64,000 nt of DNA from Escherichia coli (GTDB taxonomy: Bacteria; Pseudomonadota; Gammaproteobacteria; Enterobacterales; Enterobacteriaceae), in NCBI RefSeq assembly GCF_030013205.1, contig NZ_CP122648.1; one strand, given 5' to 3'. Every line of letters starts with the position of its first letter. The stretch's first letter is position 1. The translations under genes were made by a program, and so were the position numbers. The notes below the pieces were generated by a model, which was not told where the DNA came from, did not search any database, and saw only the letters and a list, made by a program, of their open reading frames with translations. Shown here piece after piece: positions 1-49,186 of the stretch.

Positions 1-1
1 G

Positions 2-592
2 ATTGGTCTGCTGCTGGCAGGATTAGTCTACTGGGGCTGTACGGTAGTCGTCTTACACTTCGACGCCTATGGTGAACAAATGGCGGCAGCAGCATCGCTT
101 CCAAAAATTGTAGTGCAACTGTTCGGTGTAGGAGCGTTATGGATTGCCTGCGTGATTGGCTATCTGGCCTGCTTTGCCAGTCTCAACATTTATATACAGA
201 GCTTCGCCCGCCTGGTCTGGTCGCAGGCGCAACATAATCCTGACCACTACCTGGCACGCCTCTCTTCTCGTCATATCCCGAATAATGCCCTCAATGCGGT
301 GCTCGGCTGCTGCGTGGTGAGCACGTTGGTGATTCATGCTTTAGAGATCAATCTGGACGCACTTATCATCTATGCCAATGGCATCTTTATTATGATTTAT
401 CTGTTATGCATGCTGGCAGGCTGTAAATTATTGCAAGGACGTTATCGACTACTGGCGGTGGCTGGCGGGCTGTTATGCGTTCTGTTACTGGCAATGGTCG
501 GCTGGAAAAGTCTCTATGCGCTGATCATGCTGGCGGGGTTATGGCTGTTTCTGCCAAAACGAAAAACGCCGGAAAATGGCATAACCACATAA
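2..592 (+). CDS. yjeH: YjeH-family amino-acid exporter, C-terminal part (5' end lies outside window)
   Basis: Open frame from window edge with no stops; hydrophobic multi-TM sequence; position opposite fxsA and before aspA as in E. coli. Confidence 0.8.
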   Translation: MGLLLAGLVYWGCTVVVLHFDAYGEQMAAAASLPKIVVQLFGVGALWIACVIGYLACFASLNIYIQSFARLVWSQAQHNPDHYLARLSSRHIPNNALNAVLGCCVVSTLVIHALEINLDALIIYANGIFIMIYLLCMLAGCKLLQGRYRLLAVAGGLLCVLLLAMVGWKSLYALIMLAGLWLFLPKRKTPENGITT

Positions 593-607
593 TCCGGCGT
601 TTCGGCA

Positions 608-1084
608 TTAATCCTGGCGATCGTCTTTATGATCAAGGCGGTCGCGGTCATCATCCTTTCGCTGGTACTCACCATCAAAAGTATTACCGCCACCGGTCCC
701 GGCGCTAAAACCGCCGCCAGGCATACGGGAAAAACGCAAATGCGGCATCAACTTCACTGTCAGATGCTTTTGCACCGGCGGTAATAAAAGCAGAAGACCG
801 AGGAAGTCGGTGAAAAAGCCCGGTAATAAAAGCAGCAAACCGGCAATGATCAGCGAAACACTTTTAATCATCTCCGCCGCTGGGTTTTCACCTGCCGCCA
901 TTTTTTGCTGCATCAGCACGAAATTCTTAAAGCCCTGGTTACGTACCAGTGACATACCGATAACTGACGTGAATATAACCAGCACGAGGGTCAGCAATAC
1001 CCCCAATACATGGGCAACCTGAATAAAGATTGAAATCTCAATATAGACATAAAGGAAAATGGCAATAAAAGGTAACCAGCGCAA
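608..1084 (-). CDS. fxsA: FxsA inner-membrane protein
   Basis: 158-aa ORF, N-terminal TM helices plus acidic C-terminal tail; conserved position next to aspA. Confidence 0.88.
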   Translation of the reverse strand: MRWLPFIAIFLYVYIEISIFIQVAHVLGVLLTLVLVIFTSVIGMSLVRNQGFKNFVLMQQKMAAGENPAAEMIKSVSLIIAGLLLLLPGFFTDFLGLLLLLPPVQKHLTVKLMPHLRFSRMPGGGFSAGTGGGNTFDGEYQRKDDDRDRLDHKDDRQD

Positions 1085-1420
1085 AGGTTTCTCCTGTAAT
1101 AGCAGCCGGTTAAACCCGGCTACCTGAATGGGTTGCGAATCGCGTTCAGCTTATATTGTGGTCATTAGCAAAATTTCAAGATGTTTGCGCAACTATTTTT
1201 GGTAGTAATCCCAAAGCGGTGATCTATTTCACAAATTAATAATTAAGGGGTAAAAACCGACACTTAAAGTGATCCAGATTACGGTAGAAATCCTCAAGCA
1301 GCATATGATCTCGGGTATTCGGTCGATGCAGGGGATAATCGTCGGTCGAAAAACATTCGAAACCACATATATTCTGTGTGTTTAAAGCAAATCATTGGCA
1401 GCTTGAAAAAGAAGGTTCAC

Positions 1421-2857
1421 ATGTCAAACAACATTCGTATCGAAGAAGATCTGTTGGGTACCAGGGAAGTTCCAGCTGATGCCTACTATGGTGTTCACAC
1501 TCTGAGAGCGATTGAAAACTTCTATATCAGCAACAACAAAATCAGTGATATTCCTGAATTTGTTCGCGGTATGGTAATGGTTAAAAAAGCCGCAGCTATG
1601 GCAAACAAAGAGCTGCAAACCATTCCTAAAAGTGTAGCGAATGCCATCATTGCCGCATGTGATGAAGTCCTGAACAACGGAAAATGCATGGATCAGTTCC
1701 CGGTAGACGTCTACCAGGGCGGCGCAGGTACTTCCGTAAACATGAACACCAACGAAGTGCTGGCCAATATCGGTCTGGAACTGATGGGTCACCAGAAAGG
1801 TGAATATCAGTACCTGAACCCGAACGACCATGTTAACAAATGTCAGTCCACTAACGACGCCTACCCGACCGGTTTCCGTATCGCAGTTTACTCTTCCCTG
1901 ATTAAGCTGGTAGATGCGATTAACCAACTGCGTGAAGGCTTTGAACGTAAAGCTGTCGAATTCCAGGACATCCTGAAAATGGGTCGTACCCAGCTGCAGG
2001 ACGCAGTACCGATGACCCTCGGTCAGGAATTCCGCGCTTTCAGCATCCTGCTGAAAGAAGAAGTGAAAAATATCCAACGTACCGCTGAACTGCTGCTGGA
2101 AGTTAACCTTGGCGCAACAGCAATCGGTACTGGTCTGAACACGCCGAAAGAGTACTCTCCGCTGGCAGTGAAAAAACTGGCTGAAGTCACTGGCTTCCCA
2201 TGCGTACCGGCTGAAGACCTGATCGAAGCGACCTCTGACTGCGGCGCTTATGTAATGGTTCACGGCGCGCTGAAACGCCTGGCTGTGAAGATGTCCAAAA
2301 TCTGTAACGACCTGCGCTTGCTCTCTTCTGGTCCACGTGCCGGCCTGAACGAGATCAACCTGCCGGAACTGCAGGCGGGCTCTTCCATCATGCCAGCTAA
2401 AGTAAACCCGGTTGTTCCGGAAGTGGTTAACCAGGTATGCTTCAAAGTCATCGGTAACGACACCACTGTTACCATGGCAGCAGAAGCAGGTCAGCTGCAG
2501 TTGAACGTTATGGAGCCGGTCATTGGCCAGGCTATGTTCGAATCCGTTCACATTCTGACCAACGCTTGCTACAACCTGCTGGAAAAATGCATTAACGGCA
2601 TCACTGCTAACAAAGAAGTGTGCGAAGGTTACGTTTACAACTCTATCGGTATCGTTACTTACCTGAACCCGTTCATCGGTCACCACAACGGTGACATCGT
2701 GGGTAAAATCTGTGCCGAAACCGGTAAGAGTGTACGTGAAGTCGTTCTGGAACGCGGTCTGTTGACTGAAGCGGAACTTGACGATATTTTCTCCGTACAG
2801 AATCTGATGCACCCGGCTTACAAAGCAAAACGCTATACTGATGAAAGCGAACAGTAA
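1421..2857 (+). CDS. aspA: aspartate ammonia-lyase
   Basis: 478 aa from ATG at 1421 ([13 protein letters not shown]...), fumarase/aspartase family; track ORF begins 15 codons upstream. Confidence 0.97.
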
Positions 2858-2878
2858 TCGTACAGGGTAGTACAAATA

Positions 2879-2910
2879 AAAAAGGCACGTCAGATGACGT
2901 GCCTTTTTTC
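2879..2910 (+). terminator. rho-independent terminator after aspA
   Basis: GC hairpin ggcacgtc/gacgtgcc followed by T6. Confidence 0.6.
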
Positions 2911-2974
2911 TTGTGAGCAGTAACTTAAAAATAACAATCTAATATCAACTTGTTAAAAAACAAGGAAGGCTAAT

Positions 2975-4276
2975 ATGCTAGTTGTAGAACTCATCATAGT
3001 TTTGCTGGCGATCTTCTTGGGCGCCAGATTGGGGGGAATAGGTATTGGTTTTGCAGGCGGATTGGGGGTGCTGGTTCTTGCCGCTATTGGCGTTAAACCC
3101 GGTAACATCCCGTTCGATGTCATTTCCATTATCATGGCGGTTATCGCCGCTATTTCTGCCATGCAGGTTGCTGGCGGTCTGGACTATCTGGTTCATCAGA
3201 CAGAAAAGCTGCTGCGCCGTAACCCGAAATACATCACGATCCTCGCACCGATCGTGACCTATTTCCTGACTATCTTTGCTGGTACTGGCAACATCTCTCT
3301 GGCGACACTGCCAGTTATCGCTGAAGTTGCGAAGGAACAAGGCGTTAAACCTTGCCGTCCGCTGTCTACTGCAGTGGTATCCGCGCAGATTGCGATCACC
3401 GCATCGCCAATCTCAGCGGCAGTGGTTTACATGTCTTCCGTAATGGAAGGTCATGGCATCAGCTACCTCCATCTGCTCTCCGTGGTCATCCCGTCCACCC
3501 TGCTGGCGGTTCTGGTGATGTCCTTCCTGGTCACTATGCTGTTCAACTCCAAACTCTCTGACGATCCGATTTATCGCAAGCGTCTGGAAGAAGGCCTGGT
3601 TGAACTGCGCGGTGAAAAGCAGATTGAAATCAAATCCGGTGCAAAAACGTCCGTCTGGCTGTTCCTGCTGGGCGTAGTTGGCGTTGTTATCTATGCAATC
3701 ATCAACAGCCCAAGCATGGGTCTGGTTGAAAAACCGCTGATGAACACCACCAACGCAATCCTGATCATCATGCTCAGCGTTGCAACTCTGACCACCGTTA
3801 TCTGTAAAGTCGATACCGACAACATCCTCAACTCCAGCACCTTCAAAGCAGGTATGAGCGCCTGTATTTGTATCCTGGGTGTTGCATGGCTGGGCGATAC
3901 TTTCGTTTCCAACAACATCGACTGGATCAAAGATACCGCTGGTGAAGTGATTCAGGGTCATCCGTGGCTGCTGGCCGTCATCTTCTTCTTTGCTTCTGCT
4001 CTGCTGTACTCTCAGGCTGCAACCGCAAAAGCACTGATGCCGATGGCTCTGGCACTGAACGTTTCTCCGCTGACCGCTGTTGCTTCTTTCGCTGCGGTGT
4101 CTGGTCTGTTCATTCTGCCGACCTACCCGACGCTGGTTGCTGCGGTACAGATGGATGACACGGGTACTACCCGTATCGGTAAATTCGTCTTCAACCATCC
4201 GTTCTTCATCCCGGGTACTCTGGGTGTTGCCCTTGCCGTTTGCTTCGGCTTCGTGCTGGGTAGCTTCATGCTGTAA
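2975..4276 (+). CDS. dcuA: anaerobic C4-dicarboxylate transporter DcuA
   Basis: 433-aa polytopic membrane protein, paralogous to the DcuB ORF at 52105. Confidence 0.95.
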   Translation: MLVVELIIVLLAIFLGARLGGIGIGFAGGLGVLVLAAIGVKPGNIPFDVISIIMAVIAAISAMQVAGGLDYLVHQTEKLLRRNPKYITILAPIVTYFLTIFAGTGNISLATLPVIAEVAKEQGVKPCRPLSTAVVSAQIAITASPISAAVVYMSSVMEGHGISYLHLLSVVIPSTLLAVLVMSFLVTMLFNSKLSDDPIYRKRLEEGLVELRGEKQIEIKSGAKTSVWLFLLGVVGVVIYAIINSPSMGLVEKPLMNTTNAILIIMLSVATLTTVICKVDTDNILNSSTFKAGMSACICILGVAWLGDTFVSNNIDWIKDTAGEVIQGHPWLLAVIFFFASALLYSQAATAKALMPMALALNVSPLTAVASFAAVSGLFILPTYPTLVAAVQMDDTGTTRIGKFVFNHPFFIPGTLGVALAVCFGFVLGSFML

Positions 4277-7014: not shown

Positions 7015-7120
7015 CAGAAACACAGAAAAGAAGCGATTTGCCGCAATCTTAAGCAGTTGAATCGCTTTTACTGAAATTAGGTTGACGAGATGTGCAGATT
7101 ACGGTTTAATGCGCCCCGTT

Positions 7121-7196
7121 GCCCGGATAGCTCAGTCGGTAGAGCAGGGGATTGAAAATCCCCGTGTCCTTGGTTCGATTCCGAGTCCGGGCACCA
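7121..7196 (+). tRNA. pheU: tRNA-Phe (anticodon GAA)
   Basis: 76-nt cloverleaf sequence GCCCGGATAGCTCAGTCGGTAGAGCAGGGGATTGAAAATCCCC...CCA; anticodon loop TTGAAAA. Confidence 0.95.
7174..7196 (+). repeat. attL core (3' end of pheU), duplicated at 38277-38298
   Basis: 23 nt ttcgattccgagtccgggcacca; 22 of these recur (one G fewer) at 38277. Confidence 0.75.
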
Positions 7197-7208
7197 AATT
7201 CATATCAA

Positions 7209-7236
7209 CGGACCTCCACGGAGGTCCGTTTTTCGT
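7209..7236 (+). terminator. terminator hairpin downstream of pheU
   Basis: ggacctcc-acg-gaggtcc followed by T5. Confidence 0.6.
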
Positions 7237-7393
7237 TTCAGAACACCATGATTTAAGTGTTCTTCCTCCAAATCAATTCTACCGAACTCAACCAAATTCT
7301 CCCCACATCAACCTCATTGTGTGGGTATAATTGCGGGTATACCCCAGTTCGACAGAATTTATACCCTCTTTAACGCATTCAGAAGGCTGAACT

Positions 7394-8656
7394 ATGGCAC
7401 TGACTGACGCAAAAATCCGGGCTGCAAAGCCCACTGACAAGGCTTATAAACTCACTGACGGGGCCGGCATGTTCCTGCTGGTTCATCCTAATGGTTCCCG
7501 TTACTGGCGTCTCCGCTATCGTATTCTGGGTAAGGAGAAGACTCTGGCACTTGGTGTGTATCCAGAAGTTTCTCTCTCCGAAGCTCGTACAAAACGGGAT
7601 GAGGCCCGAAAACTGATTTCAGAGGGGATTGACCCTTGCGAACAGAAAAGAGCTAAAAAAGTTGTCCCTGATTTACAGCTCTCTTTTGAACATATTGCAC
7701 GACGCTGGCATGCCAGTAATAAACAATGGGCACAATCACACAGCGATAAAGTACTCAAAAGCCTCGAGACACACGTTTTCCCCTTTATCGGCAACCGGGA
7801 TATCACAACACTCAGTACCCCGGACCTGCTTATCCCTGTTCGTGCTGCAGAAGCTAAACAAATTTATGAAATCGCCAGTCGTCTGCAGCAAAGAATATCT
7901 GCTGTAATGCGTTATGCCGTACAGTCTGGCATCATCAGATATAACCCGGCTCTGGATATGGCTGGTGCATTGACCACGGTAAAACGCCAGCATCGCCCTG
8001 CACTGGATCTTTCACGCCTGCCTGAACTTCTGTCGCGTATTGACGGTTATAAAGGCCAGCCTGTCACCCGACTGGCAGTTATGCTGAATTTACTGGTTTT
8101 TATTCGTTCCAGTGAACTCAGATACGCCCGCTGGTCTGAAATTGATATTGACAATGCCATGTGGACTATTCCAGCCGAACGCGAACCTCTGCCTGGCGTA
8201 AAATTCTCACACCGGGGCTCCAAGATGCGAACACCACATCTTGTGCCACTCAGCAAACAGGCTGTAGCCATACTGGCAGAACTACAGACATGGGCTGGTG
8301 AAAATGGTCTGATCTTTACGGGAGCACATGACCCGCATAAACCAATCAGTGAAAATACTGTAAATAAAGCCCTGAGGGTGATGGGGTATGACACAACCCA
8401 GGATGTCTGTGGCCATGGATTCCGTGCGATGGCATGTAGTGCGCTGATCGAATCAGGTTTGTGGTCCCGCGATGCTGTTGAACGTCAGATGAGCCATCAG
8501 GAACGTAACGGTGTACGCGCTGCGTATATCCATAAAGCCGAACATCTGGAAGAACGCCGGCTGATGCTACAGTGGTGGGCAGATTTTCTGAATGCGAACA
8601 GAGAGAAATGTATCAGTCCGTTTGATTATGCAAAGATCAACAATCCATTAAAATAG
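7394..8656 (+). CDS. int: P4-type tyrosine integrase
   Basis: 420 aa directly downstream of tRNA-Phe; N-terminal MALTDAKIRAAKP... and C-terminal HGFRAMA...RAAY tyrosine-recombinase signature. Confidence 0.9.
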   Translation: MALTDAKIRAAKPTDKAYKLTDGAGMFLLVHPNGSRYWRLRYRILGKEKTLALGVYPEVSLSEARTKRDEARKLISEGIDPCEQKRAKKVVPDLQLSFEHIARRWHASNKQWAQSHSDKVLKSLETHVFPFIGNRDITTLSTPDLLIPVRAAEAKQIYEIASRLQQRISAVMRYAVQSGIIRYNPALDMAGALTTVKRQHRPALDLSRLPELLSRIDGYKGQPVTRLAVMLNLLVFIRSSELRYARWSEIDIDNAMWTIPAEREPLPGVKFSHRGSKMRTPHLVPLSKQAVAILAELQTWAGENGLIFTGAHDPHKPISENTVNKALRVMGYDTTQDVCGHGFRAMACSALIESGLWSRDAVERQMSHQERNGVRAAYIHKAEHLEERRLMLQWWADFLNANREKCISPFDYAKINNPLK

Positions 8657-8819
8657 TAATAATCCCCGGGCAAAATGCCCGGGGTACTTTGAATGACTAT
8701 TTTTCTTTGGGCGTGATGAAGAAGATTGATGGTAAGACAAATTACTCCCGACTCTTACGTATTTTCATGGAAAGAAATCCCCCAATATCATCCATCGGGA
8801 TCGAGTAATAACCTGTAAT

Positions 8820-10385: not shown

Positions 10386-11714
10386 ATGAGCCACAGGGAA
10401 TTGTTCAGCGAATTTCTTGAAAATTTGAATCTTGACCTCAAACAGGCAAAAAAGATCAGCTATCACTATCGAAAAATAACCAAGTCATTAAATCTTGCGT
10501 TCAGAGGAACGAGTTCCCGGGTAGCAAACCGCTTGAAAGTGGGGTCAGTAGGCAGACATACCGCAATAAAAGGCATATCCGATCTGGATATGCTTTATAT
10601 TATGCCCCCCAATCAGTATGAATATTATAACCGTAAGGATAATGGTCAGTCTGCATTGCTTACAGATGTCAGAAACATTCTGGCGGAAGAATATCCTGAC
10701 CAGACTGTGAAAAAGGACAGACTGGTTGTTCAGATCATCTTTAAAAACTTTTATGTCGAGGTTCAACCTGTATTCAGACAGGATGATGACAGCTTTAAAT
10801 TCCCTGAAAGCTATAATGGAGGAGCATGGCGCATTACAAAACCTCTTCACGAAAAGGCGGCCATGACCGCATTTTCGCGAGATAAATCCAATAATCTGCG
10901 CAAGCTGTGTAAAATGATCAGAGCCTGGAAGAACCTGCATGGCGTCAATATGGGTGGCTTACTGATAGACACACTAGCGTATCGCTTTCTTTCATCAACA
11001 TCAGATTATGACAATACCGGAAATGGCAGCCTGGGAGCCCTCGCCAGAGACTTTTTTGAATATCTGTCAAATGAGGAGAGAAAGGAAAGGTATCTCGCGT
11101 TAGGCAGTAATCAGCATGTACGTGTTAAATCTCCCTGGTTTGGCCGGGCAGCGAAACACGCGTATGAATTATGTTGTGATGCCTTAGACGCTGAGGGGGC
11201 TGCCAGTGAAAATGACCGCTGGCGCAAAGTGTTCGGACGAGCCTTCCCCAGACGTAAAGTGGGTATTATGGAAGCCCGTCTTGGTCTGGAATCGCATGCG
11301 GCAGATGCTGTTCCCTGGACCGATACCGAAGAGTTTATAGAGGATAAATATCCGGTGGATATCAGGTACTCACTCAACCTTGACTGTACCGTAACCCAGG
11401 ATGGTTTCCCTCCCAGAAGCCTGAGGGAGATGCTTACCAGAAGATTCCGCCTCTCCGCTCGAAAATCTCTCCTTTTCCGGGCAGACTTGACAGAAATGGA
11501 GGCAGAGGAACCCTACACCGTTATGTGGAAGGTACTGAACGTGGGTGACGAAGCACGCAGAAGAAATATGATCCGGGGACAAATCGTTTCGGACGGCGGC
11601 TACTGTACGAAGAAAGAAACTACCGACTTCCGCGGAGATCACATGGTAGAATGCTATGTGATAAAAAATGAGGTTGTGGTTGCCCGGGCCCAGATTGAAG
11701 TTCCCATAAGCTGA
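10386..11714 (+). CDS. Pol-beta-fold nucleotidyltransferase with C-terminal extension (SMODS/CD-NTase-like plus AGS-C-like region)
   Basis: ATG with SD aaagga; GS-x10-SDLD nucleotidyltransferase signature (VGSVGRHTAIKGISDLD); about 150-aa C-terminal extension; AT-rich gene. Confidence 0.6.
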   Translation: MSHRELFSEFLENLNLDLKQAKKISYHYRKITKSLNLAFRGTSSRVANRLKVGSVGRHTAIKGISDLDMLYIMPPNQYEYYNRKDNGQSALLTDVRNILAEEYPDQTVKKDRLVVQIIFKNFYVEVQPVFRQDDDSFKFPESYNGGAWRITKPLHEKAAMTAFSRDKSNNLRKLCKMIRAWKNLHGVNMGGLLIDTLAYRFLSSTSDYDNTGNGSLGALARDFFEYLSNEERKERYLALGSNQHVRVKSPWFGRAAKHAYELCCDALDAEGAASENDRWRKVFGRAFPRRKVGIMEARLGLESHAADAVPWTDTEEFIEDKYPVDIRYSLNLDCTVTQDGFPPRSLREMLTRRFRLSARKSLLFRADLTEMEAEEPYTVMWKVLNVGDEARRRNMIRGQIVSDGGYCTKKETTDFRGDHMVECYVIKNEVVVARAQIEVPIS

Positions 11715-11721
11715 GGTTTTT

Positions 11722-12297
11722 ATGACGCAATCAGAGATGCTGAAATTAATCGCCCGACATGGTTATAACGTTGGATTTGGCGCTAAGAAAAACTTTGCCA
11801 CCTATGATCTGATTTGTAAGGCATCCGGTTGGATTAGCTTTATTTCTCTTGCTGTCGGTGTGTTCGCCCTTTTTATTCCTGAGCTGGCCACAAACGTCAT
11901 TTCCGCGATATTAATTATATTTGGTGTTGCTACAATGTACATTCAGTTTTATGACTCGGAAAAGCAGAGTTATGAAAGTGCGGGGATTGAGCAGACCAAA
12001 ATTTTTAATGAACTTGAAGTCATCTACCGCAACGTAAAAAGCGATGCAAACTTTGACTATCAGCGTACACAACAATCCATCGACGCTATCATGTCCCGGT
12101 TTTACGGCACGGTCATCAGCAAACAGATCTTCGGAAGTAACTGGTACGCACATTATAAATTTTACTGTGAATTTGAAAAAGCATGGGTTGAAGAAGAGCT
12201 GAACCTGACACTGAAGGACAAAATCCCGCTTTCGCTCTGCTTTCTCGCCGGTCTGGCGATCATTTTTACTATAGCTGTCATCTGGAAAACGCCCTGA
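11722..12297 (+). CDS. small multi-TM membrane protein (SLATT-like predicted effector)
   Basis: 191 aa, starts 8 nt after the nucleotidyltransferase stop with SD gagg; two adjacent N-proximal hydrophobic helices and one C-terminal helix. Confidence 0.55.
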   Translation: MTQSEMLKLIARHGYNVGFGAKKNFATYDLICKASGWISFISLAVGVFALFIPELATNVISAILIIFGVATMYIQFYDSEKQSYESAGIEQTKIFNELEVIYRNVKSDANFDYQRTQQSIDAIMSRFYGTVISKQIFGSNWYAHYKFYCEFEKAWVEEELNLTLKDKIPLSLCFLAGLAIIFTIAVIWKTP

Positions 12298-12848
12298 TGC
12301 TGCAGCCAATGAAAAATTCAGCAAGCTGACTGTCAAATATGCGATGTATAGCCGGTATCACCATCCAGTGTACGTTCTATAAGGGGGGCGCTTGGAAAAC
12401 GGGTAGAGTCAAGATGTGGCGCGGTAATTTTACAGGTCAGGCATATCTGTTGCCGCCTCTTTCGATTGGCGGTGCCTTACTGTCCTGACCATAAATCCTG
12501 TTTCCACACCCCGCTCATCGAAGCGGACATGCGCTTCTAACACATCCGGCTCTCGGACAGAATCATGCCTTCGCCCACGGAAACCTCTGCGGGAGCTTCG
12601 GTGCATATTTTCATGGAAGGGGATCACCCAATAACTTCCATCGAGATCGGGTCATAACGGCCAATCCGTGATCGAATAGAGCGGAATACGCACTCTGACG
12701 AACTGCTTACATTTAAACTAATTACAAACTATATAAATCCGCCTTGCTCATTCACAGGGTAGATATATTCTTACTTTTAATTTTATGTGTAATTAACTGA
12801 TGACGAAAAATGAATTGAACTGTAAATGCATATCTAAGTTTTTCATTC

Positions 12849-13574
12849 TTATGATGTACATAATACCTTAAAATTATCAACTAGCTGAGCATTAACCTCC
12901 ATCTGACTAATCCCCCATAATGCGGCTAACTGTTTCTCTGCAATCCCACTATCCCATGGCATTAGTGGGTCATTACGAAACTTAGCAAATGGCCCATCTG
13001 TTTCTGTAAGAATGCGTGATTTGGGTATTTTCAAAACTAAGGCCTTACCCTTTATTGTATCGAGCATAGCAGGCCCCACTGAGAACCAGCATCCTAAATC
13101 AATTGCCCTTTCAAGCTGCTTAGGTGTTCCAGTGAACCAATGCAATATTGCCACCCCATCGATATTTTCAATCTCATCAAGCACCGCTGATGCACTTCCC
13201 CGACTATGGATAGTCATAATCTTGCCACCAGCCCGATTTACACTGTTGAGAATGTGTCGGAACACTTTCAATTGAATATCCCAATGTTCTTTAAATCCCT
13301 GTCCACCATCAAGCCCTATTTCCCCTACATACTTAGTTTCCGAAAGCAATGAATCAAACAGGTCTAACTCATGCGATCTTTGATGCGCGATTTGAGGATG
13401 TAGCCCAAGAGCAGTTCGGATTCGTTGACTTTCTTTAGCCAATAAAGAAGTACCATGCCATGCTTTAGGTGTTGTTGTCACCGACAGAATATAAGTCCCT
13501 CGACGTTTACTTTCTTCAGCCACGAGGTCTGGCCGAGGATATAAGTCTAGATGACAGTGCATATCGATGCTCAT
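12849..13574 (-). CDS. qatD: TatD-family metal-dependent DNase (QatD)
   Basis: 241 aa; N-terminal HxH metal motif (MSIDMHCHLDLYP); start ATG overlaps qatC stop (ATGA). Confidence 0.8.
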   Translation of the reverse strand: MSIDMHCHLDLYPRPDLVAEESKRRGTYILSVTTTPKAWHGTSLLAKESQRIRTALGLHPQIAHQRSHELDLFDSLLSETKYVGEIGLDGGQGFKEHWDIQLKVFRHILNSVNRAGGKIMTIHSRGSASAVLDEIENIDGVAILHWFTGTPKQLERAIDLGCWFSVGPAMLDTIKGKALVLKIPKSRILTETDGPFAKFRNDPLMPWDSGIAEKQLAALWGISQMEVNAQLVDNFKVLCTS

Positions 13575-14890
13575 ACTATGTTCTCACTCAGTAAATAGCT
13601 TTCAACCTCATCCAGGCCATCCTTAAATACTTGCTTGAAATTATCAAATTCTGCCGTAGGCAAAGGGCCACTTTTGGCAATCCATGTACCTATTTTCAAA
13701 GTCGATTTCTGCGTGATCGCAATCCTAAGGGCGATCAGGTCGTCCCTGCGATCTATTTCATTCATTACTTTAGCTAAGGACTGGAAAATATATTCAACAT
13801 CTCTACTAATTCCCCCTGCATGAAGTGATGCTCGTCGAATGATACACGGTATACATACCCCACATTGCTGCCCCATTCGTTTCCAATGACTGCAGGATAC
13901 TGTACTTTCCACAATTTTAGATAAGAGCTGCTTATTTGAACATTCGGAGATCATTTTTCCTTTTGTCTTAAACTGATATGGATTGATTATTTGACAAGAA
14001 ATACCGAGCGCATCAAAGATCTTTTGTATGCTCGTAATAAAATGTGGATGTGTTGTTCGTGTGCTCAGCGAACCTATCCGCCGTGGAGTAAGTGGTGCAT
14101 TTAATGAGATAAATCCATTTTCAGGTACGAACAAATCAATCTTTTCTTGTTGAGATATCTCTTGTACGGCACAAGCACCTACGGCCGCAAAGGCAAGAAA
14201 ATTGAGGCTACGAGTTCGCATCGTAATATCAGTCACGCCTTGATAAATGTGTGGGTCAGCATTAATCTCAAAGCGCGAAAATTGGCCACTTAATTTTTCA
14301 GCAATCTGATCTTGACGAGACTTATCCCCCTTATAAGCATGACTAACCAAAAGTGGAGCGCGCCCTGCAGCCAGAAGATCTATTGCACCAATAGCTGAAT
14401 CCAGACCTCCTGAAAATAGGCTGACACAGTCAAGCCCTTTTAGCTTAATCAGACGATGCCTTGAATGCTGGCTATAAGGCTCTGGCGGTGCATAACCATC
14501 GTCACAAAATTCGAAATCCCAGATGTCTCCACTAAGAAAATGCAAAGCACTCTCAAGTTCTTTCTTTAGACTAATCCATCTGGATGGTTCATGAAGGGGG
14601 AGTCGTAACGACAATTGGCGGGTCCAACCATCCTCGGAACTTTCACGCTGAACGAAAGTATCTGCTGCAGTTACTGCTAATGCAACACTCAGAAAATCCA
14701 TGACCTTAGCTGGAAGCTGTACTCCCAAACGTCTGATCCGATCAATCGCAGGATTCCCGATAACAGATATATCTCCGCGCCTCTGACCACTTAATCCATA
14801 TAGCTGAACAGGTAACACTTTCTCACTTGCTGGCGGCAAATGGTGATGTTTATGATGGAAAACTAATTGTGTCACTGGTATGCCTCCCAT
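13571..14890 (-). CDS. qatC: QueC-like PP-loop ATPase (QatC)
   Basis: 439 aa; PP-loop SGGLDS; C-terminal Cys cluster CSHW...CGVCIPC as in QueC. Confidence 0.8.
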   Translation of the reverse strand: MGGIPVTQLVFHHKHHHLPPASEKVLPVQLYGLSGQRRGDISVIGNPAIDRIRRLGVQLPAKVMDFLSVALAVTAADTFVQRESSEDGWTRQLSLRLPLHEPSRWISLKKELESALHFLSGDIWDFEFCDDGYAPPEPYSQHSRHRLIKLKGLDCVSLFSGGLDSAIGAIDLLAAGRAPLLVSHAYKGDKSRQDQIAEKLSGQFSRFEINADPHIYQGVTDITMRTRSLNFLAFAAVGACAVQEISQQEKIDLFVPENGFISLNAPLTPRRIGSLSTRTTHPHFITSIQKIFDALGISCQIINPYQFKTKGKMISECSNKQLLSKIVESTVSCSHWKRMGQQCGVCIPCIIRRASLHAGGISRDVEYIFQSLAKVMNEIDRRDDLIALRIAITQKSTLKIGTWIAKSGPLPTAEFDNFKQVFKDGLDEVESYLLSENIV

Positions 14891-15624
14891 TCTTGCCAGG
14901 CCTCAATAATGGCCTGACGTTCAATTTTTACCATTTGGTTTCGTGTGAACGATCTTATGTTACCGGCAAGTTTTGGTGCCATATGTTTATCAACAACAAC
15001 TTTAATCAATTCCCGGAGTTCAATTTCTGCATGAATTGCCTTTGAAGGTGTATCTGCTTTGTTCCATGCCCTATTAGAATCCATTACCATCTGAAGGAAA
15101 ATACTTTCCGCTAGATAACCAATCATTGTGTCAACAATCACACCATCAGTTATTTTTTGAGGATCGAAAATTTCTACGCCATCAAGAGCCTCCACTAAAG
15201 CATGGTTCATGGCCGCACAGATCTTTTCTGAGTCACCATCCTGTGATGTTAAAGCTTGAGCAATAGTTGATATTGCTATTTCGCATGGAAGGCCTGCCAA
15301 ACTGCCCAAATCGATGCTTGGTTCTCCGGGAGCCGAAGGCATTCCCACTAAAGCCCCAAATAATTCGGCCCCAGCTTGCGTGACACTCCCTAATCGCCGA
15401 GCAGCGTTACTGCTCCCTCCGGAGGCTTTTCGCGCGTAGTGCCCTATGGCTTTTCTGAAATCTGCTCGATTTCCATTTGATACCGCATTTCCCAACGATT
15501 CTCGAAATGGCGCAAACCTCCTTTCTTGCGGCGAGGGTAACGGTTGCTGTGGCTGATCATCAGCCCATGGTGGAACCAGCGGAGAGCCACCTCCTGGACC
15601 TTTACTTGATTGTGATGTTCCCAT
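14872..15624 (-). CDS. qatB: QatB (function unknown)
   Basis: 250 aa Gly/Pro-rich protein between the KAP ATPase and QueC-like genes; start overlaps qatA stop by 1 nt, 3' end overlaps qatC by 19 nt. Confidence 0.65.
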   Translation of the reverse strand: MGTSQSSKGPGGGSPLVPPWADDQPQQPLPSPQERRFAPFRESLGNAVSNGNRADFRKAIGHYARKASGGSSNAARRLGSVTQAGAELFGALVGMPSAPGEPSIDLGSLAGLPCEIAISTIAQALTSQDGDSEKICAAMNHALVEALDGVEIFDPQKITDGVIVDTMIGYLAESIFLQMVMDSNRAWNKADTPSKAIHAEIELRELIKVVVDKHMAPKLAGNIRSFTRNQMVKIERQAIIEAWQEWEAYQ

Positions 15625-17408
15625 TAAGCGTCCTTATTCCATTGTTCATCTTTTAATGCTGCAGTCATCCACGCTGGTCGTTTCATCCCCAACTGTAATT
15701 CCTGTAGATAACGAATTAATATGCTGGCTGCATCTGTTGAGTAGCGGGCCAACAGACATGCGCCGGAAAAGCCTCTGGGCTTACGATCCCAATCTGATAC
15801 CTGCCGTAACTGGTTAATTAAACCTTCCATTACAGGTATTTGCTCCTCACGAGGAAGTGCTTTCAAAAGGTTTTCTGCTGTAGGAGAACTAGTGTTTTTC
15901 AATTCAATTAGTGCATTTAGTACTTCCCGTCCAGATGGCGATAAACCAACCACATATGCACCTATTGGCATAGTTTCTCGGGACAGATATATGGCGGCCC
16001 TTAAGTCAATCCCACCAAGACGAGGTTCAAGTTGGGCCCATTGACTGATGAAAGATTTAGTCGTTGGACTATCAGTCCATGTCTTTGGTGCATCAGTAGG
16101 TATTTGACCGCCATTATCGTCAAGCTGTTTAAGTATCTGGGGAACACCTTGTTCAATATCCACGAGATGATATAAATCAGCGGTGCCATCCACTCCAACA
16201 CAGCGTTCAAAAATTACTAGCTTAGTAATAATTGCTTCATCCAAAGGCATTGCTCGTCGCTTCGCAATTTGAGATCGCATTTTCACAACATTCAACAAGC
16301 GTTTAACGATCCTGGGATTACCATGAATAATTGGAGAGTTGGCTAAAATGGGAGCAATACGGTCAGCACGCGCAAACGCCAGCGCGAGGTTGCTATCATC
16401 CGCTTCACCAGTCATTTTTAAGGCCTCCTGACGTGAGATTGGTTCATCTTTCCAGGATTGCTGTAACGCCTTCTCTAAGCCCTCACGGAGCATAGTTATT
16501 TTTTCGCCTTCTAAGCCATGTTCAATGGCATAAAGCATGAACAGATACGAACGGATCTCACGGACCCCAGCCTTAGGCACCCGAATAGGAACCTGGATTA
16601 GCTTATCCAGATAATCTATTTGATGGCGCTGTGATGCCCCTTTGAAGTAATCAGCCACAGAAGAGCGAATCATGTCCTCATCTGCTGCAATAATAAAGGC
16701 TGTATTAGTCAAGAAAAGGAATAGCCTGATAGCTTCAAGTGTATGGATAGCATTGGCAGGGAGACAGCGGTCTAGGTTATCTATTACCACAATGAGTGGC
16801 TTTCCAAGTTCTTCTAGAATTTCCCCATATTCCTTACGAAAGGCATCAATCTGCTGAGGGGGGCTTTTTTTTGTTTGTGGTTTAATCAAACCACAAGCAG
16901 TTTCTTTACCTTCTTTAGCTATATTGCCTAAAGCCTCATACTCTTCCTGACTCTGGATGCCATCGGTGATATTTCTTAATGCACCAATCCCCCTAGAAAG
17001 CAAACCGCCAGTAGGTAATCCTGCCATTAAAGCTGTACCCTCAGCTAGTAATCCCATAGCTCTAAAACCATCAACTCGACTAAGGAGTCTCTTAGTTTTT
17101 GATATAAGGGTAGAATTACCTTCAGCAGCTTTTGTCAATTCTGTAGCGATGACTTCAAGAAGTGCGGCACGGGCGTCGTCGTACCCCTGATAGAGCCAAG
17201 AGTCAAAATTGATAACAATCCAATCTTTGTCGTCTTGCTCAAGTTTTTGCTCTATCAGTTTTAACAGAGAGGATTTACCTGCCCCCCAGTTTCCAAAAAT
17301 TCCGATAGATACTGGTAACATATCTTTCGTGGTAAGTACATCCACGGCTAACTGAGATACTTCACCAAAATTTAGGTAGTCTTCTGATGACTCTTTGTCT
17401 GACCACAT
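15624..17408 (-). CDS. qatA: KAP-family P-loop NTPase (QatA)
   Basis: 594 aa; Walker A GNWGAGKSS near N-terminus. Confidence 0.8.
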   Translation of the reverse strand: MWSDKESSEDYLNFGEVSQLAVDVLTTKDMLPVSIGIFGNWGAGKSSLLKLIEQKLEQDDKDWIVINFDSWLYQGYDDARAALLEVIATELTKAAEGNSTLISKTKRLLSRVDGFRAMGLLAEGTALMAGLPTGGLLSRGIGALRNITDGIQSQEEYEALGNIAKEGKETACGLIKPQTKKSPPQQIDAFRKEYGEILEELGKPLIVVIDNLDRCLPANAIHTLEAIRLFLFLTNTAFIIAADEDMIRSSVADYFKGASQRHQIDYLDKLIQVPIRVPKAGVREIRSYLFMLYAIEHGLEGEKITMLREGLEKALQQSWKDEPISRQEALKMTGEADDSNLALAFARADRIAPILANSPIIHGNPRIVKRLLNVVKMRSQIAKRRAMPLDEAIITKLVIFERCVGVDGTADLYHLVDIEQGVPQILKQLDDNGGQIPTDAPKTWTDSPTTKSFISQWAQLEPRLGGIDLRAAIYLSRETMPIGAYVVGLSPSGREVLNALIELKNTSSPTAENLLKALPREEQIPVMEGLINQLRQVSDWDRKPRGFSGACLLARYSTDAASILIRYLQELQLGMKRPAWMTAALKDEQWNKDA

Positions 17409-37323: not shown

Positions 37324-38166
37324 ATGTCTGAAATCACAGCCTCTCGTCCGGAAGTGGTCAACGGGCATACGGACGTTATCTGCTCAACCAGTATCCGCCA
37401 CATTCTGGCTGTACGAAAGAGTACATTGCTGCAAATCGACACACTTATCCGGCAACTGGCTGAAATATCAGCAATGACAGAAAGTATTGGAGGTAAAACG
37501 GCTCTGGACTGGGCCATGAAACAGGATTTTCGCTGCGGTTGCTGGCTGATGGAGAAACCGGAAACCGCAATGAAAGCCATCACACGCAATCTTGATCGCG
37601 AACTCTGGCGTGATCTGATGCAACGTTCCGGGTTGCTGAGTCTGATGGATGCGCAGACCCGGGACACATGGTACAGGTCACTGGAATATGATAATTTTCC
37701 GGAAATCAGCGAAGCGAACATTCTGAGCACATTTGAACAACTGCACCAGAACAAAGATGAAGTGTTTGAACGGGGAGTGATCAACGTCTTCAAAGGGCTG
37801 AGCTGGGATTACAAAACCAACTCACCCTGTAAATTTGGCAGTAAAATTATCGTCAACAATCTGGTGAGGTGGGACCAGTGGGGATTTCATCTTATCAGTG
37901 GAATGCAGGCAGATCGCCTGGCTGACCTGGAAAGAATGTTGCATCTGCTCAGCGGTAAACCGATCCCCGACAACCGGGGGAATATCACCATTAATCTGGA
38001 TGACCACATACAGTCCGTTCAGGGTAAAGGACGCTATGAAGATGAGATGTTCATCATTAAATACTTTAAGAAGGGATCTGCACACATCACTTTCAAAAGG
38101 CTGGAGCTGATTGACAGAATTAACGATATAATAGCTAGGCACTTTCCTTCTGTGCTCTCAGCCTGA
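37324..38166 (+). CDS. DUF4942-like island protein
   Basis: 280 aa, SD aaagga; family assignment from memory. Confidence 0.5.
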   Translation: MSEITASRPEVVNGHTDVICSTSIRHILAVRKSTLLQIDTLIRQLAEISAMTESIGGKTALDWAMKQDFRCGCWLMEKPETAMKAITRNLDRELWRDLMQRSGLLSLMDAQTRDTWYRSLEYDNFPEISEANILSTFEQLHQNKDEVFERGVINVFKGLSWDYKTNSPCKFGSKIIVNNLVRWDQWGFHLISGMQADRLADLERMLHLLSGKPIPDNRGNITINLDDHIQSVQGKGRYEDEMFIIKYFKKGSAHITFKRLELIDRINDIIARHFPSVLSA

Positions 38167-38276
38167 CCCCGAGTTTGATTCCCTTTCGATATCAAAAGGG
38201 ACTGCGGGTACAAAAGAGGGTACATCTTTCACCAAACCAAACAAAATAAACTAATATCAACATGATAGAAGCATTC

Positions 38277-38298
38277 TTCGATTCCGAGTCCGGCACCA
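38277..38298 (+). repeat. attR: duplicate of pheU 3' end
   Basis: ttcgattccgagtccggcacca matches 7174-7196 with one G fewer; flanking about 150 bp also resembles the region downstream of pheU. Confidence 0.75.
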
Positions 38299-38463
38299 AA
38301 TTCATATAAACGGACCTCCACGGAGGTCCGTTTTTCGTTTCAGGACGCCACAATTTAAGCGTTCTGCCTAAAAATCATTTCTACCGAACTCAACCAAATT
38401 CTCCCCACAACACCAGCATTTTGCGGGTATATCCCAATTCGGGAAAATTTGTTCCTGAGCTAT

Positions 38464-38655
38464 AGCGCTGACTGACGTGAAATGTCGTGCGACCCCGTGA
38501 TGCTGTTGAATGTCAAATGACGTCATCAGGAGCGTAACGCATCCATAAAGCACAACACCGGTCTGAACGCCGACTGATGAGATTTTCTGAATGAGAACAA
38601 AGAGAAATGTATCAGTCCGCTTGCTCATGCAAAGACTAACAATCCATAAAAATAG
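38464..38655 (+). pseudogene. integrase remnant (first codons fused to 3' end; internal deletion)
   Basis: gctgactgacg matches int start at 7399; 38490-38655 parallels int 8460-8656 including the stop. Confidence 0.6.
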
Positions 38656-38914
38656 TAAGCGCGCCGGGCAATTTCCCATGGATTATTTTCTGAACATTTT
38701 TCTTTGGCAAAGATGATGAATTTTGATGATAAGGAATATTACTTCTGGTTCTCAGTAAAATCCTTTCGTAATACTATGTAATCAAGAAGTTTATGGCTGG
38801 TAAAAATAACGTCTTGCATTCACCAATAATATGTAAATAAAACCATCTATAGATGGTAAAAATAGGTTGTGGCAATTATCATTGCATCATTCCCTTTTCG
38901 AATGAGTTTCTATT

Positions 38915-40453
38915 ATGCAACAACCTGTAGTTCGCGTTGGCGAATGGCTTGTTACTCCGTCCATAAACCAAATTAGCCGCAATGGGCGTCAACTTACCCT
39001 TGAGCCGAGATTAATCGATCTTCTGGTTTTCTTTGCTCAACACAGTGGCGAAGTACTTAGCAGGGATGAACTTATCGATAATGTCTGGAAGAGAAGTATT
39101 GTCACCAATCACGTTGTGACGCAGAGTATCTCAGAACTACGTAAGTCATTAAAAGATAATGATGAAGATAGTCCTGTCTATATCGCTACTGTACCAAAGC
39201 GCGGCTATAAATTAATGGTGCCGGTTATCTGGTACAGCGAAGAAGAGGGAGAGGAAATAATGCTATCTTCGCCTCCCCCTATACCAGAGGCGGTTCCTGA
39301 CACAGATTCTCCCTCCCACAGTCTTAACATTCAAAACACCGCAACACCACCTGAACAATCCCCTGTTAAAAGCAAACGATTCACTACCTTTTGGGTATGG
39401 TTTTTTTTCCTGTTGTCGTTAGGTATCTGTGTAGCACTGGTAGCGTTTTCAAGTCTTGATACACGTCTTCCGATGAGCAAATCGCGTATTTTGCTCAATC
39501 CACGCGATATTGACATTAATATGGTAAATAAAAGTTGTAACAGCTGGAGTTCCCCGTATCAGCTCTCTTACGCGATAGGCGTGGGTGATTTGGTGGCGAC
39601 ATCACTTAACACCTTCTCCACCTTTATGGTGCATGACAAAATCAACTACAACATTGATGAACCGAGCAGTTCCGGTAAAACATTATCTATTGCGTTTGTT
39701 AATCAGCGCCAATACCGTGCTCAACAATGCTTTATGTCGGTAAAATTGGTAGACAATGCAGATGGTTCAACCATGCTGGATAAACGTTATGTCATCACTA
39801 ACGGTAATCAGCTGGCGATTCAAAATGATTTACTGGAGAGTTTATCAAAAGCGTTAAACCAACCGTGGCCACAACGAATGCAGGAGATGCTCCAGCAAAT
39901 TTTGCCTCATCGTGGTGCGTTATTAACTAATTTTTATCAGGCACATGATTATTTACTGCATGGCGATGATAAATCATTGAACCGTGCCAGTGAATTATTG
40001 GGTGAGATTGTTCAATCATCCCCAGAATTTACCTACGCGAGAGCAGAAAAAGCATTAGTTGATATCGTGCGCCATTCTCAACATCCTTTAGATGAAAAAC
40101 AATTAGCAGCACTGAACACAGAAATAGATAACATTGTTACACTACCGGAATTGAATAACCTGTCCATTATATATCAAATAAAAGCGGTCAGTGCTCTGGT
40201 AAAAGGTAAAACAGATGAGTCTTATCAGGCGATAAATACTGGCATTGATCTTGAAATGTCCTGGCTAAATTATGTATTGCTTGGCAAGGTTTATGAAATG
40301 AAGGGGATGAACCGGGAAGCAGCTGATGCATATCTCACCGCCTTTAATTTACGCCCAGGGGCAAACACCCTTTACTGGATTGAAAATGGTATATTCCAGA
40401 CTTCTGTTCCTTATGTTGTACCTTATCTCGACAAATTTCTCGCTTCAGAATAA
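38915..40453 (+). CDS. cadC: membrane-integrated transcriptional activator CadC
   Basis: 512 aa; N-terminal winged-helix, single TM (FTTFWVWFFFLLSLGICVALVAF), periplasmic sensor. Confidence 0.95.
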   Translation: MQQPVVRVGEWLVTPSINQISRNGRQLTLEPRLIDLLVFFAQHSGEVLSRDELIDNVWKRSIVTNHVVTQSISELRKSLKDNDEDSPVYIATVPKRGYKLMVPVIWYSEEEGEEIMLSSPPPIPEAVPDTDSPSHSLNIQNTATPPEQSPVKSKRFTTFWVWFFFLLSLGICVALVAFSSLDTRLPMSKSRILLNPRDIDINMVNKSCNSWSSPYQLSYAIGVGDLVATSLNTFSTFMVHDKINYNIDEPSSSGKTLSIAFVNQRQYRAQQCFMSVKLVDNADGSTMLDKRYVITNGNQLAIQNDLLESLSKALNQPWPQRMQEMLQQILPHRGALLTNFYQAHDYLLHGDDKSLNRASELLGEIVQSSPEFTYARAEKALVDIVRHSQHPLDEKQLAALNTEIDNIVTLPELNNLSIIYQIKAVSALVKGKTDESYQAINTGIDLEMSWLNYVLLGKVYEMKGMNREAADAYLTAFNLRPGANTLYWIENGIFQTSVPYVVPYLDKFLASE

Positions 40454-47650: not shown

Positions 47651-47664
47651 ATTTCACTTAAATG

Positions 47665-47693
47665 AACGAAGCAGTCAGGCGACTGCTTCGTTC
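47665..47693. terminator. hairpin between convergent lysU and ghoT (possible bidirectional terminator)
   Basis: 13-bp stem gaacgaagcagtc/gactgcttcgttc with 3-nt loop ; no clean T-run. Confidence 0.4.
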
Positions 47694-47768
47694 GTCGTTC
47701 CGCAAATCCAGTTATGAGGAGAGACGCTTCGTTTCAAGATAACCAGCGGGTCCACTCAACTACAGCTC

Positions 47769-47942
47769 CTAAAAGAGAGAAAAAAGTAATGCCACAGGCA
47801 GACTCATTGGCCAGGTTATTCCGACCAGGAATGCACTAAGTAAACGAATATGTGTTTTCTCATGTGAGATAAACCAGATAATGACAAAGGATATGTTCAC
47901 ACCAATCACATAAAAAATTAATATTTTAGAGAATAGTGCCAT
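47769..47942 (-). CDS. ghoT: GhoT membrane-lytic toxin
   Basis: 57 aa read manually (MALFSKILIFYVIGVNISFVIIWFISHEKTHIRLLSAFLVGITWPMSLPVALLFSLF); below ORF-track length cutoff. Confidence 0.85.
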   Translation of the reverse strand: MALFSKILIFYVIGVNISFVIIWFISHEKTHIRLLSAFLVGITWPMSLPVALLFSLF

Positions 47943-47969
47943 TTTTTATGTTCTTCTTATCCTTCCTGG

Positions 47970-48266
47970 CTACTTGTAAAACTGACGGAAATAATCATCA
48001 ACTGTCATAATGTTGAGGTCAAAGTCAATATCCGGTAAGTCTAAGCATTTAAGCCTGATTAAATCTTCGATTTCACTTGCGGCTAACGATGTCGTTATTG
48101 CGAAGGAGTTTTCATTCAATTGTCGTGGTATCCCATATTCATCAGCCACGATAGAGGAGAAATTCATATCATACATCAATGATCTTAACCTTAAGAACAC
48201 TGAGGAATAAGATGATGGATAATCAAAAGAAACAACATAAGTATTGAACTTGTTTTTACCTTCCAT
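47970..48266 (-). CDS. ghoS: GhoS antitoxin (type V, RNase)
   Basis: 98 aa directly upstream of ghoT on same strand. Confidence 0.85.
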   Translation of the reverse strand: MEGKNKFNTYVVSFDYPSSYSSVFLRLRSLMYDMNFSSIVADEYGIPRQLNENSFAITTSLAASEIEDLIRLKCLDLPDIDFDLNIMTVDDYFRQFYK

Positions 48267-48492
48267 AATATGACTCCTATCAATATTGAACGCTCTGGGG
48301 ACGCAAAACTTATTAACCCCGATCGATGATTTTCATATAGGAGATATTCTTTTTTTTGCTCAGTAAAGGGGATGACTTGGGACAAAAAAACGCTCTCTCT
48401 GCCCATTCTTTGTGCATCCCCCTACCCTTCAGATGCTCTCCTGCATCACACCGCGGAGAGCATGAAAAATATCGTGACTCTGTACTCTCCCA

Positions 48493-48765
48493 TCAACTGC
48501 GAATATCATCATACTCCCGCGTTTTATCAAATTCGTGTTTCGCAAATGGGCATAGTGGGATAATTTTTCGTTTTTCCCGACGCATTTTTTCCACGACTTT
48601 CGCAACCAGCTGTTTACCAATCCCCTGCCCTTTCAGGCTTTCATCGACATCGGTATGTTCGATAATCGCTAAATTCTCTCCGGTCGGCACAAAGACAATT
48701 TCAGCGATTTGCTTGCCTTGTTCGTCATTAATGTAAAATTTATTGTGGCCTTCGCGTATTTCCAT
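48493..48765 (-). CDS. yjdJ: GNAT-family acetyltransferase YjdJ
   Basis: 90 aa; conserved position between ghoS and yjdI. Confidence 0.8.
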
Positions 48766-48776
48766 TTTACCCTCGC

Positions 48777-49007
48777 TTATTTATGACGGTATTTCAGCGC
48801 GCCGCTCGGGCACGTATCAATCACTTTAACCACAGTGGTGACGTCAACTTCATCCGGCATGATCCACGGCTTTCGTTTGAGATTAAATAACTTGCCGTTG
48901 CCACGTACGCAATTGCCAGAATGCTGACATATCGCAGTGTTGAACCAGACATCGATCTTTTCGCCGGTATAGCAGCGATAACCACCGTCCAGTAGATCCT
49001 GATCCAT
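48777..49007 (-). CDS. yjdI: YjdI (small Cys-containing protein)
   Basis: 76 aa from ATG 49007 ([16 protein letters not shown]...); track ORF extends 19 codons upstream. Confidence 0.75.
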
Positions 49008-49186
49008 GACCTTCCCCCTCTCATCAGTATGGTTTTCGCAATAAGCATAGCCCGGAATCTTCATACCGCACCGGCAGTTTCAGTTTCCAGAGCCTCTTCC
49101 CCTATATAGCCAATCATTCTTACTCCCTTTGAATTACCCGCCTCATCAGAGATAATGCTTAAGAAATTTGTCACACAAGGAAGCTG

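Follow-up and report, generated by a model that had tools for sequence, protein, structure and literature searches.

A decayed P4-type integrase behind a pheU island of Escherichia coli is the genus-wide pseudogene yjdQ, very probably the left end of an ancient element

Behind the right attachment site of a 31-kb island in the tRNA-Phe gene pheU, the E. coli DNA analysed here (the window, a stretch of 64,000 nucleotides of contig NZ_CP122648.1) contains the remnant of a P4-type integrase. It is yjdQ, a known pseudogene that occurs throughout the genus, is already annotated and belongs to the ordinary backbone DNA. We consider it very probable that positions 38299-38755 derive, by decay, from the left end of an ancient P4-type element in pheU, and that they were later displaced by the present island. 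The features of the locus are the following:

7121-7196, + strand: pheU, intact tRNA-Phe(GAA) gene (ARAGORN), identical to K-12 pheU and the sole tRNA gene of the window
7174-7196, + strand: attL core of the present island, the last 23 nt of pheU
7197-7393, + strand: island-borne leader from the tRNA to int, with a putative terminator hairpin (~7206-7231) and the int upstream region
7394-8656, + strand: intact P4-family tyrosine integrase of the present island, 420 aa (Pfam Arm-DNA-bind_3, Phage_int_M and Phage_integrase)
7197-38276, + strand: present pheU island, 31 kb, based on the annotation of the 99.9%-identical region of ETEC4079 and on K-12, which lacks the island
38277-38298, + strand: attR core, the tRNA-Phe 3' end minus one G (GAGTCCGGCACCA)
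38299-38461, + strand: ancestral chromosomal flank of pheU and probable leader of the ancient element, collinear with K-12 directly after pheU
38462-38483, + strand: codons 1 to ~8 of the ancient integrase, start codon ATA in E. coli
38484-38655, + strand: integrase 3' fragment, corresponding to about int 8434-8656 and following a deletion of ~1.02 kb; K-12 pseudogene yjdQ (b4654)
38656-38755, + strand: downstream sequence of the old int, homologous to 8657-8756, with a decayed int terminator hairpin
38757-38914, + strand: cadC upstream region without homology to the island, better conserved than the remnant
38915-40453, + strand: cadC, first gene of the cadC-cadB-cadA-dtpC-lysU block of the pheU-dcuS slot

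Homology between the remnant and the resident island

We used blastn to compare 38230-38900 with the pheU end of the resident island (7100-8800) and obtained three collinear matches. The first (38277-38431 against 7174-7329) is identical at 139 of 156 positions (89%, E 8e-53), the second (38494-38539 against 8466-8510) at 40 of 46 (87%, E 5e-10) and the third (38580-38658 against 8581-8659) at 71 of 79 (90%, E 1e-25). The third match includes the TAG stop codon, which at 38653-38655 aligns with 8654-8656. The start region of the integrase is also recognizable (CTATAGCGCTGACTGACG vs CTATGGCACTGACTGACG, 20/23 identical), with the ATG changed to ATA at 38462-38464. Beyond the stop codon homology continues for about another 100 bp, to ~38755 (score 58, compared to 6 +/- 3 for shuffled sequences). 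The likeness of the two regions therefore extends far past the 22-nt att core, through a match of 156 nt and those within int. A preliminary description, made from the sequence, had reported a repeat of the region downstream of pheU including its terminator hairpin, at an identity of roughly 85 percent, slightly below the value found here. Its second observation, an integrase start fused to the integrase 3' end with the stop codon retained, agrees with the matches at the start and over the last ~70 codons with the TAG.

On the tRNA side, the remnant's leader has kept a terminator-like hairpin at 38308-38333 (-18.4 kcal/mol, z -4.25), and the hairpin of the island-side leader (~7206-7231) folds with -17.6 kcal/mol (z -4.8). 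Judged by its sequence, the island leader 7197-7393 is the modern counterpart of 38299-38461, in which the int upstream region is decayed and shows gaps of 12 nt and 22 nt relative to the modern island. As a separate observation, a segment of 12-13 nt in the island leader (7310-7345) duplicates a GGGTATA motif (GTGGGTATAATTGCGGGTATA) that is present as a single copy in the relic; the duplicated motif could represent Int arm-type sites or promoter elements.

The resident Int is 55% identical to the integrase of phage P4 across 97% of its length, and the remnant shares 87-90% DNA identity with its gene (7394-8656) at both ends, which places the remnant in the P4 family. The complete reading frame with the catalytic residues (R..K..HxxR..H..Y) is missing. 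An internal deletion of ~1.02 kb, with a junction microhomology of AT, removed about int 7417-8433 (codons ~9-347). The 3' fragment further contains a +1 frameshift, a deletion of 16-18 nt comprising the catalytic Tyr codon with its NGVRAAY segment, and a deletion of 14 nt. Because of the large deletion, the ATA start, the frameshift and the loss of the Tyr segment, the remnant is a nonfunctional pseudogene.

Orthology with yjdQ and the attR of the present island

Complete E. coli genomes were searched with a 640-bp query (38277-38916), and the remnant was counted as present if one place in the genome covered at least 80% of it. We found the remnant in 5218 of 5426 genomes (96%), mostly at 95-99% identity. 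In K-12, which is island-free, the sequence begins directly at the CCA end of the unoccupied pheU and extends to cadC. The window is 96.6% identical to K-12 over 640 bp ending in cadC, with the flanks and the collinear order of an orthologue. A three-way alignment showed that the K-12 flank is collinear with the window from 38299 onward, whereas the sequence from 7197 onward is more divergent and borne by the island. In the MG1655 reference record the feature at 4362191-4362353, between cadC and pheU, is the pseudogene yjdQ (b4654). PGAP labels it in K-12 and many other genomes as 'integrase / tyrosine-type recombinase, frameshifted, incomplete'. A literature search for yjdQ and b4654 returned no relevant paper. 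The PGAP annotation is inconsistent: in strains 7/2 and ETEC4079, the nearest to the window, the relic is unannotated although it is 100% identical there. Strain 7/2 matches over the full 640 bp, but its pheU island is different and larger.

In K-12 and other unoccupied genomes the relic lies immediately 3' of the CCA end of pheU and is transcribed away from it. In an evenly spaced sample of the genome matches, 9 of 28 full-length rows had no tRNA-Phe under the match, so that about a third of the genomes have an element between pheU and the relic.

These data bear on the history of this strain. The preliminary description had read the remnant as the trace of a second P4-type element that lost most of its integrase and cargo at this place. 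A former occupant of pheU whose integrase lost ~1.0 kb is retained from this proposal; its timing and scope are not, as the same remnant occurs in 96% of complete E. coli genomes, at the empty pheU of K-12 and in other Escherichia. A recent, strain-specific tandem array, in which a second island integrated beside the present one and was then mostly deleted, would give the local order of attR followed by an integrase fragment, resembling the left end of a second island. We regard such an array as extremely unlikely: K-12 and most E. coli have the identical arrangement free of an island, the junction is common to other Escherichia, and the remnant is 96.6% identical to that of K-12 but only 89% to the resident island.

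The present island (7197-38276) is recognized by an intact int next to the tRNA, a 23/22-nt repeat (7174-7196 / 38277-38298) and its absence from K-12. It is 99.9% identical to porcine ETEC strains, its closest relatives, and 80% or more of its length is present in only 19 genomes. Its cargo consists of IS remnants, a nucleotide-binding/SLATT pair, Qat anti-phage genes, a KAP NTPase, Ag43 and a CP4-44-like module with CbtA/YeeU. The anti-phage genes form a cluster at 10386-17408, with names taken from the 99.9%-identical ETEC4079 annotation: a nucleotide-binding-domain protein and a SLATT-domain protein at 10386-12297, and on the minus strand (12849-17408) QatD, QatC, a hypothetical protein and a KAP-family P-loop NTPase.

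The attR carries GG where the tRNA has GGG, in 7/7 copies examined; these come from MOD1-EC7003 and from six E. coli strains, among which at least three diverged island ends are represented. The 'duplicate tRNA end' of the preliminary description thus belongs to the present island, as its attR, and not to the old element. The occurrence of GG at every attR, across island ends and in another species, suggests that the one-base difference is carried by the attP of the islands rather than caused by random decay. At ATAT[C/A]AACGG, the C of attL is that of the island and the A of attR that of the chromosome. Together with the invariant GG this would place strand exchange within CACCAAATTCATAT, the 14 nt following the GG/GGG difference. 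Everything to the right of the attR crossover would then be old chromosomal flank, and the island would have entered a pheU that was already trailed by the relic, which it moved by 31 kb.

Age and decay across Escherichia

For an estimate of age we sampled cadC loci with one genome per species; the recovered set did not include E. fergusonii. The same primary junction (..CTGACTGACGYGAAATGTCGTG..) is found in Escherichia sp. E1V33, Escherichia sp. MOD1-EC7003, E. whittamii and the divergent 'E. coli' SCPM-O-B-8794. Each of the four has the relic in front of cadC, following either pheU or the attR of an island. Secondary small indels differ among the lineages sharing the junction. The 16-18-nt segment with the catalytic Tyr is kept in three lineages and gone in E. 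coli and E1V33, SCPM-O-B-8794 retains 22 nt 5' of the start that E. coli lost, and the ATG start is still present in other Escherichia lineages aligned. As part of the best explanation of these patterns, the relic very likely predates the split of E. coli from its sister Escherichia lineages. In the E. albertii representative the relic is absent and another mobile element abuts cadC, so that the age of the relic is bounded only by the lineages sampled. The E. albertii element contains a primase fragment and a 612-aa DUF927-like helicase/primase (1-4263 of the fetched locus), and homology to E. coli begins there only ~70 bp before the cadC ATG. On the other side of pheU, E1V33 has a 671-aa ORF between dicD and pheU (2179-4194 of the fetched locus), where the gap in E. 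coli is only ~106 bp; E. whittamii has a similar dicD-tRNA gap of about 2.2 kb (dicD end 2094, tRNA 4296 in the fetched locus).

We compared the identity of the remnant with that of third codon positions of cadC. Between the window and the four lineages the values were 87.7 vs 87.3, 84.8 vs 86.9, 89.7 vs 86.9 and 77.8 vs 83.0%. The 158 bp adjoining cadC are 89-99% identical, compared to 78-96% for the remnant. The old int terminator hairpin folds with -3.9 kcal/mol (z +1.3), its counterpart in the modern island with -19.2 kcal/mol (z -4.2). Since the divergence of the remnant is similar to or higher than that of cadC third codon positions, and since the int hairpin has decayed with the tRNA-side hairpin left intact, the data fit neutral decay of the remnant, except for this tRNA-side hairpin, a putative pheU terminator.

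Retention in 96% of genomes could also reflect a function beyond pheU termination, for instance as a small RNA, as a minus-strand protein (ORF 38368-38679) or as part of the cadC regulatory region, and a genomic SELEX study places a peak for a constitutive promoter of a minor sigma factor in the cadC-pheU spacer (PMC5493296). We consider such co-option quite unlikely. The remnant has no Rfam match, and a scan of 37800-39200 (E<=1) gave one spurious match to a eukaryotic lncRNA only. Promoter-like sites are not enriched (2 found, 2.5 expected). Its divergence is at the level of synonymous sites, with lineage-specific indels, and conservation is concentrated in the 158 bp adjoining cadC, outside the remnant. 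As a candidate gene, the minus-strand ORF (about 103-104 aa) was rejected; it is cut to 53-78 aa in other lineages.

For the preferred reading as a decayed ancient element we propose the following history. An ancient P4-type integrative element would have entered pheU before E. coli and its sister Escherichia lineages diverged. Its surviving parts would be the tRNA-proximal leader with the terminator, int codons 1-8 fused to ~348-420, and ~100 bp beyond int. A single internal deletion of ~1.0 kb at an AT microhomology presumably inactivated the integrase, and substitutions and small lineage-specific indels would afterwards have accumulated at a neutral rate. The tRNA-proximal hairpin may have been preserved as the terminator of pheU in unoccupied genomes. 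Much later, the present 31-kb island would have entered the regenerated pheU by site-specific recombination. As an outcome, the tRNA would have kept the chromosomal GGG, pheU would now be trailed by the int-side leader of the island, and the remnant with its old flank would have come to lie at the attR side. The ~89% likeness of the two copies would stem from a common family of pheU/pheV-targeting integrases, not from a duplication in this strain. The order of these events is our reconstruction; repeated use of pheU by integrative elements, also suggested in the preliminary description as serial integration, is supported.

Origin of the pheU flank and of the cad-lysU block

The gene order of E. 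coli on the groES..dsbD-dicD-pheU side is conserved in Salmonella, Citrobacter enshiensis and Kosakonia. Directly after the CCA end all three have a different hairpin (CTTATTCAGAAAACCCAGCC...GGCTGGGTTTTT), followed by genus-specific genes, and the ancient element is absent from the site. From the different terminator in the other genera it follows that the Escherichia flank, terminator included, is derived from the element.

The fate of the old element's cargo is a separate question. Genomic islands in tRNA genes are expected between direct repeats of the tRNA 3' end; only two such repeats occur in the window, both belonging to the present island. A third copy of the tRNA-Phe 3' end (<=3 mismatches) was not found in the window to 64 kb, including 25 kb downstream, nor was a displaced native terminator of the Salmonella/Citrobacter/Kosakonia type found anywhere in the window. 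The old element therefore has no recognizable right end, and the loss of its cargo by deletion, as proposed in the preliminary description, is only one possible outcome.

Alternatively, the cargo may still be present. The genes cadC-cadB-cadA-dtpC-lysU-ghoST-yjdJ/I (38757 to ~49186) would then be domesticated cargo, and only the integrase and the attR would have decayed. We propose this reading tentatively and judge it somewhat less probable than its opposite. The relic is located at the tRNA-proximal end and transcribed away from pheU, the usual place of an island integrase, and the cad block begins ~260 bp after its stop codon. The cadCBA-dtpC genes are conserved in Klebsiella, Raoultella, Serratia, Edwardsiella and others, where they never lie less than 5 kb from a tRNA-Phe or an integrase; they are next to pheU only in Escherichia, and their upstream neighbors elsewhere are variable. 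The pheU-dcuS slot is filled with genus-specific DNA in Salmonella (island 4305; PMC1360685), Citrobacter and Kosakonia. Its GC content is 45.5%, compared to 50.2-50.7% in the flanks, the GC3 of cadC is 38%, compared to 56-63% in backbone genes, and the slot contains the toxin-antitoxin pair ghoST. In addition, a strain with LEE in pheU has been reported to lack lysU, yjdL and cadABC as a unit of ~10 kb (PMC3408504). Against cad as cargo, no attR relic or native terminator lies near the yjdI-dcuS boundary or up to 64 kb, cadA and dtpC have a GC3 near that of the backbone (54-56%), and no donor or intact relative with cad as cargo was identified. Furthermore, deletion of cargo and attR gives the same adjacency if cad already adjoined pheU.

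Within the slot, cadC (38915-40453; GC 41.8%) and the lysU-dcuS gap (47651-49186; ghoST, yjdJ/I; GC 42%) are both markedly AT-rich compared to the neighboring backbone genes. A search of other genera for a constant neighbor upstream of the cad block gave none; even Klebsiella and Raoultella genomes differ at this place. Across genera, the sequence upstream of cadC is homologous only as far as about -40 to -70, too short a stretch to show where element DNA gives way to cad DNA. CadC fragments 100% identical to E. coli also turned up in contigs of 279-643 bp with low coverage from 'Arthrobacter sp. GMC3' and 'Alkalicoccobacillus porphyridii', and a fragment with 69% identity in a Myxococcus assembly. 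All three are most likely enterobacterial contamination.

The main value of the locus lies in a caution about island boundaries and in a lead on the origin of cad-lysU. E. coli DNA past the attR of a pheU island always has an integrase fragment, which should not be taken for a second, recently degraded island. For incoming pheU islands of the same family the relic adds a long but imperfect direct repeat (~155 bp, 89% identical and including a perfect block of 35 nt, plus the int 3' pieces), which could in principle permit RecA-dependent, integrase-free loss of the island. If the tRNA-side hairpin acts as predicted, the terminator of E. coli pheU was supplied by a mobile element. Should the cad-lysU block indeed be old cargo, the locus would clearly exemplify the complete absorption of an island by the core genome of a genus. 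The lysine decarboxylase system and the second lysyl-tRNA synthetase would then have been brought in as a pheU island ahead of the diversification of the genus, and lysine decarboxylase, a core diagnostic trait of Escherichia, would be island-borne in origin. The pheU terminator and the sequence 5' of the cadC promoter region would likewise be island DNA.

Islands in pheU and pheV have been reported with a common integrase (PMC7686366), and imperfect attR repeats of 19-23 bp have been described for GI-pheV (PMC11537424). The P4-family integrases of such islands (intP4 types of GI-pheV) are among the closest known systems: the remnant has 87-90% DNA identity to the intact member in the window. 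In contrast to the intact pheU/pheV integrases, it lacks ~340 codons including all catalytic residues and cannot encode a recombinase. In the Salmonella genus, island 4305 of S. Typhimurium occupies the same pheU-dcuS slot with genus-specific DNA and no functional integrase (Table 2 of PMC1360685). It differs in its unrelated genes (dms, rtsAB, phoN). Unlike Escherichia, Salmonella keeps the native pheU terminator and has no integrase relic beside the tRNA.

The remnant is located on the same cadC side of pheU and in the same orientation as yjdQ of K-12; it differs in lying 31 kb from pheU, with the island in between. The K-12 annotation of yjdQ covers the 3' fragment only, whereas the element-derived stretch begins at the tRNA end and continues for ~100 bp beyond the stop codon. 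K-12 has other cryptic P4-like integrase relics beside tRNA genes, e.g. intB at leuX. These are decayed integrases at tRNA 3' ends that mark past integrations and persist in the backbone of the species. Compared to these relics, yjdQ is far more reduced, and it is not followed by recognizable prophage-type cargo.
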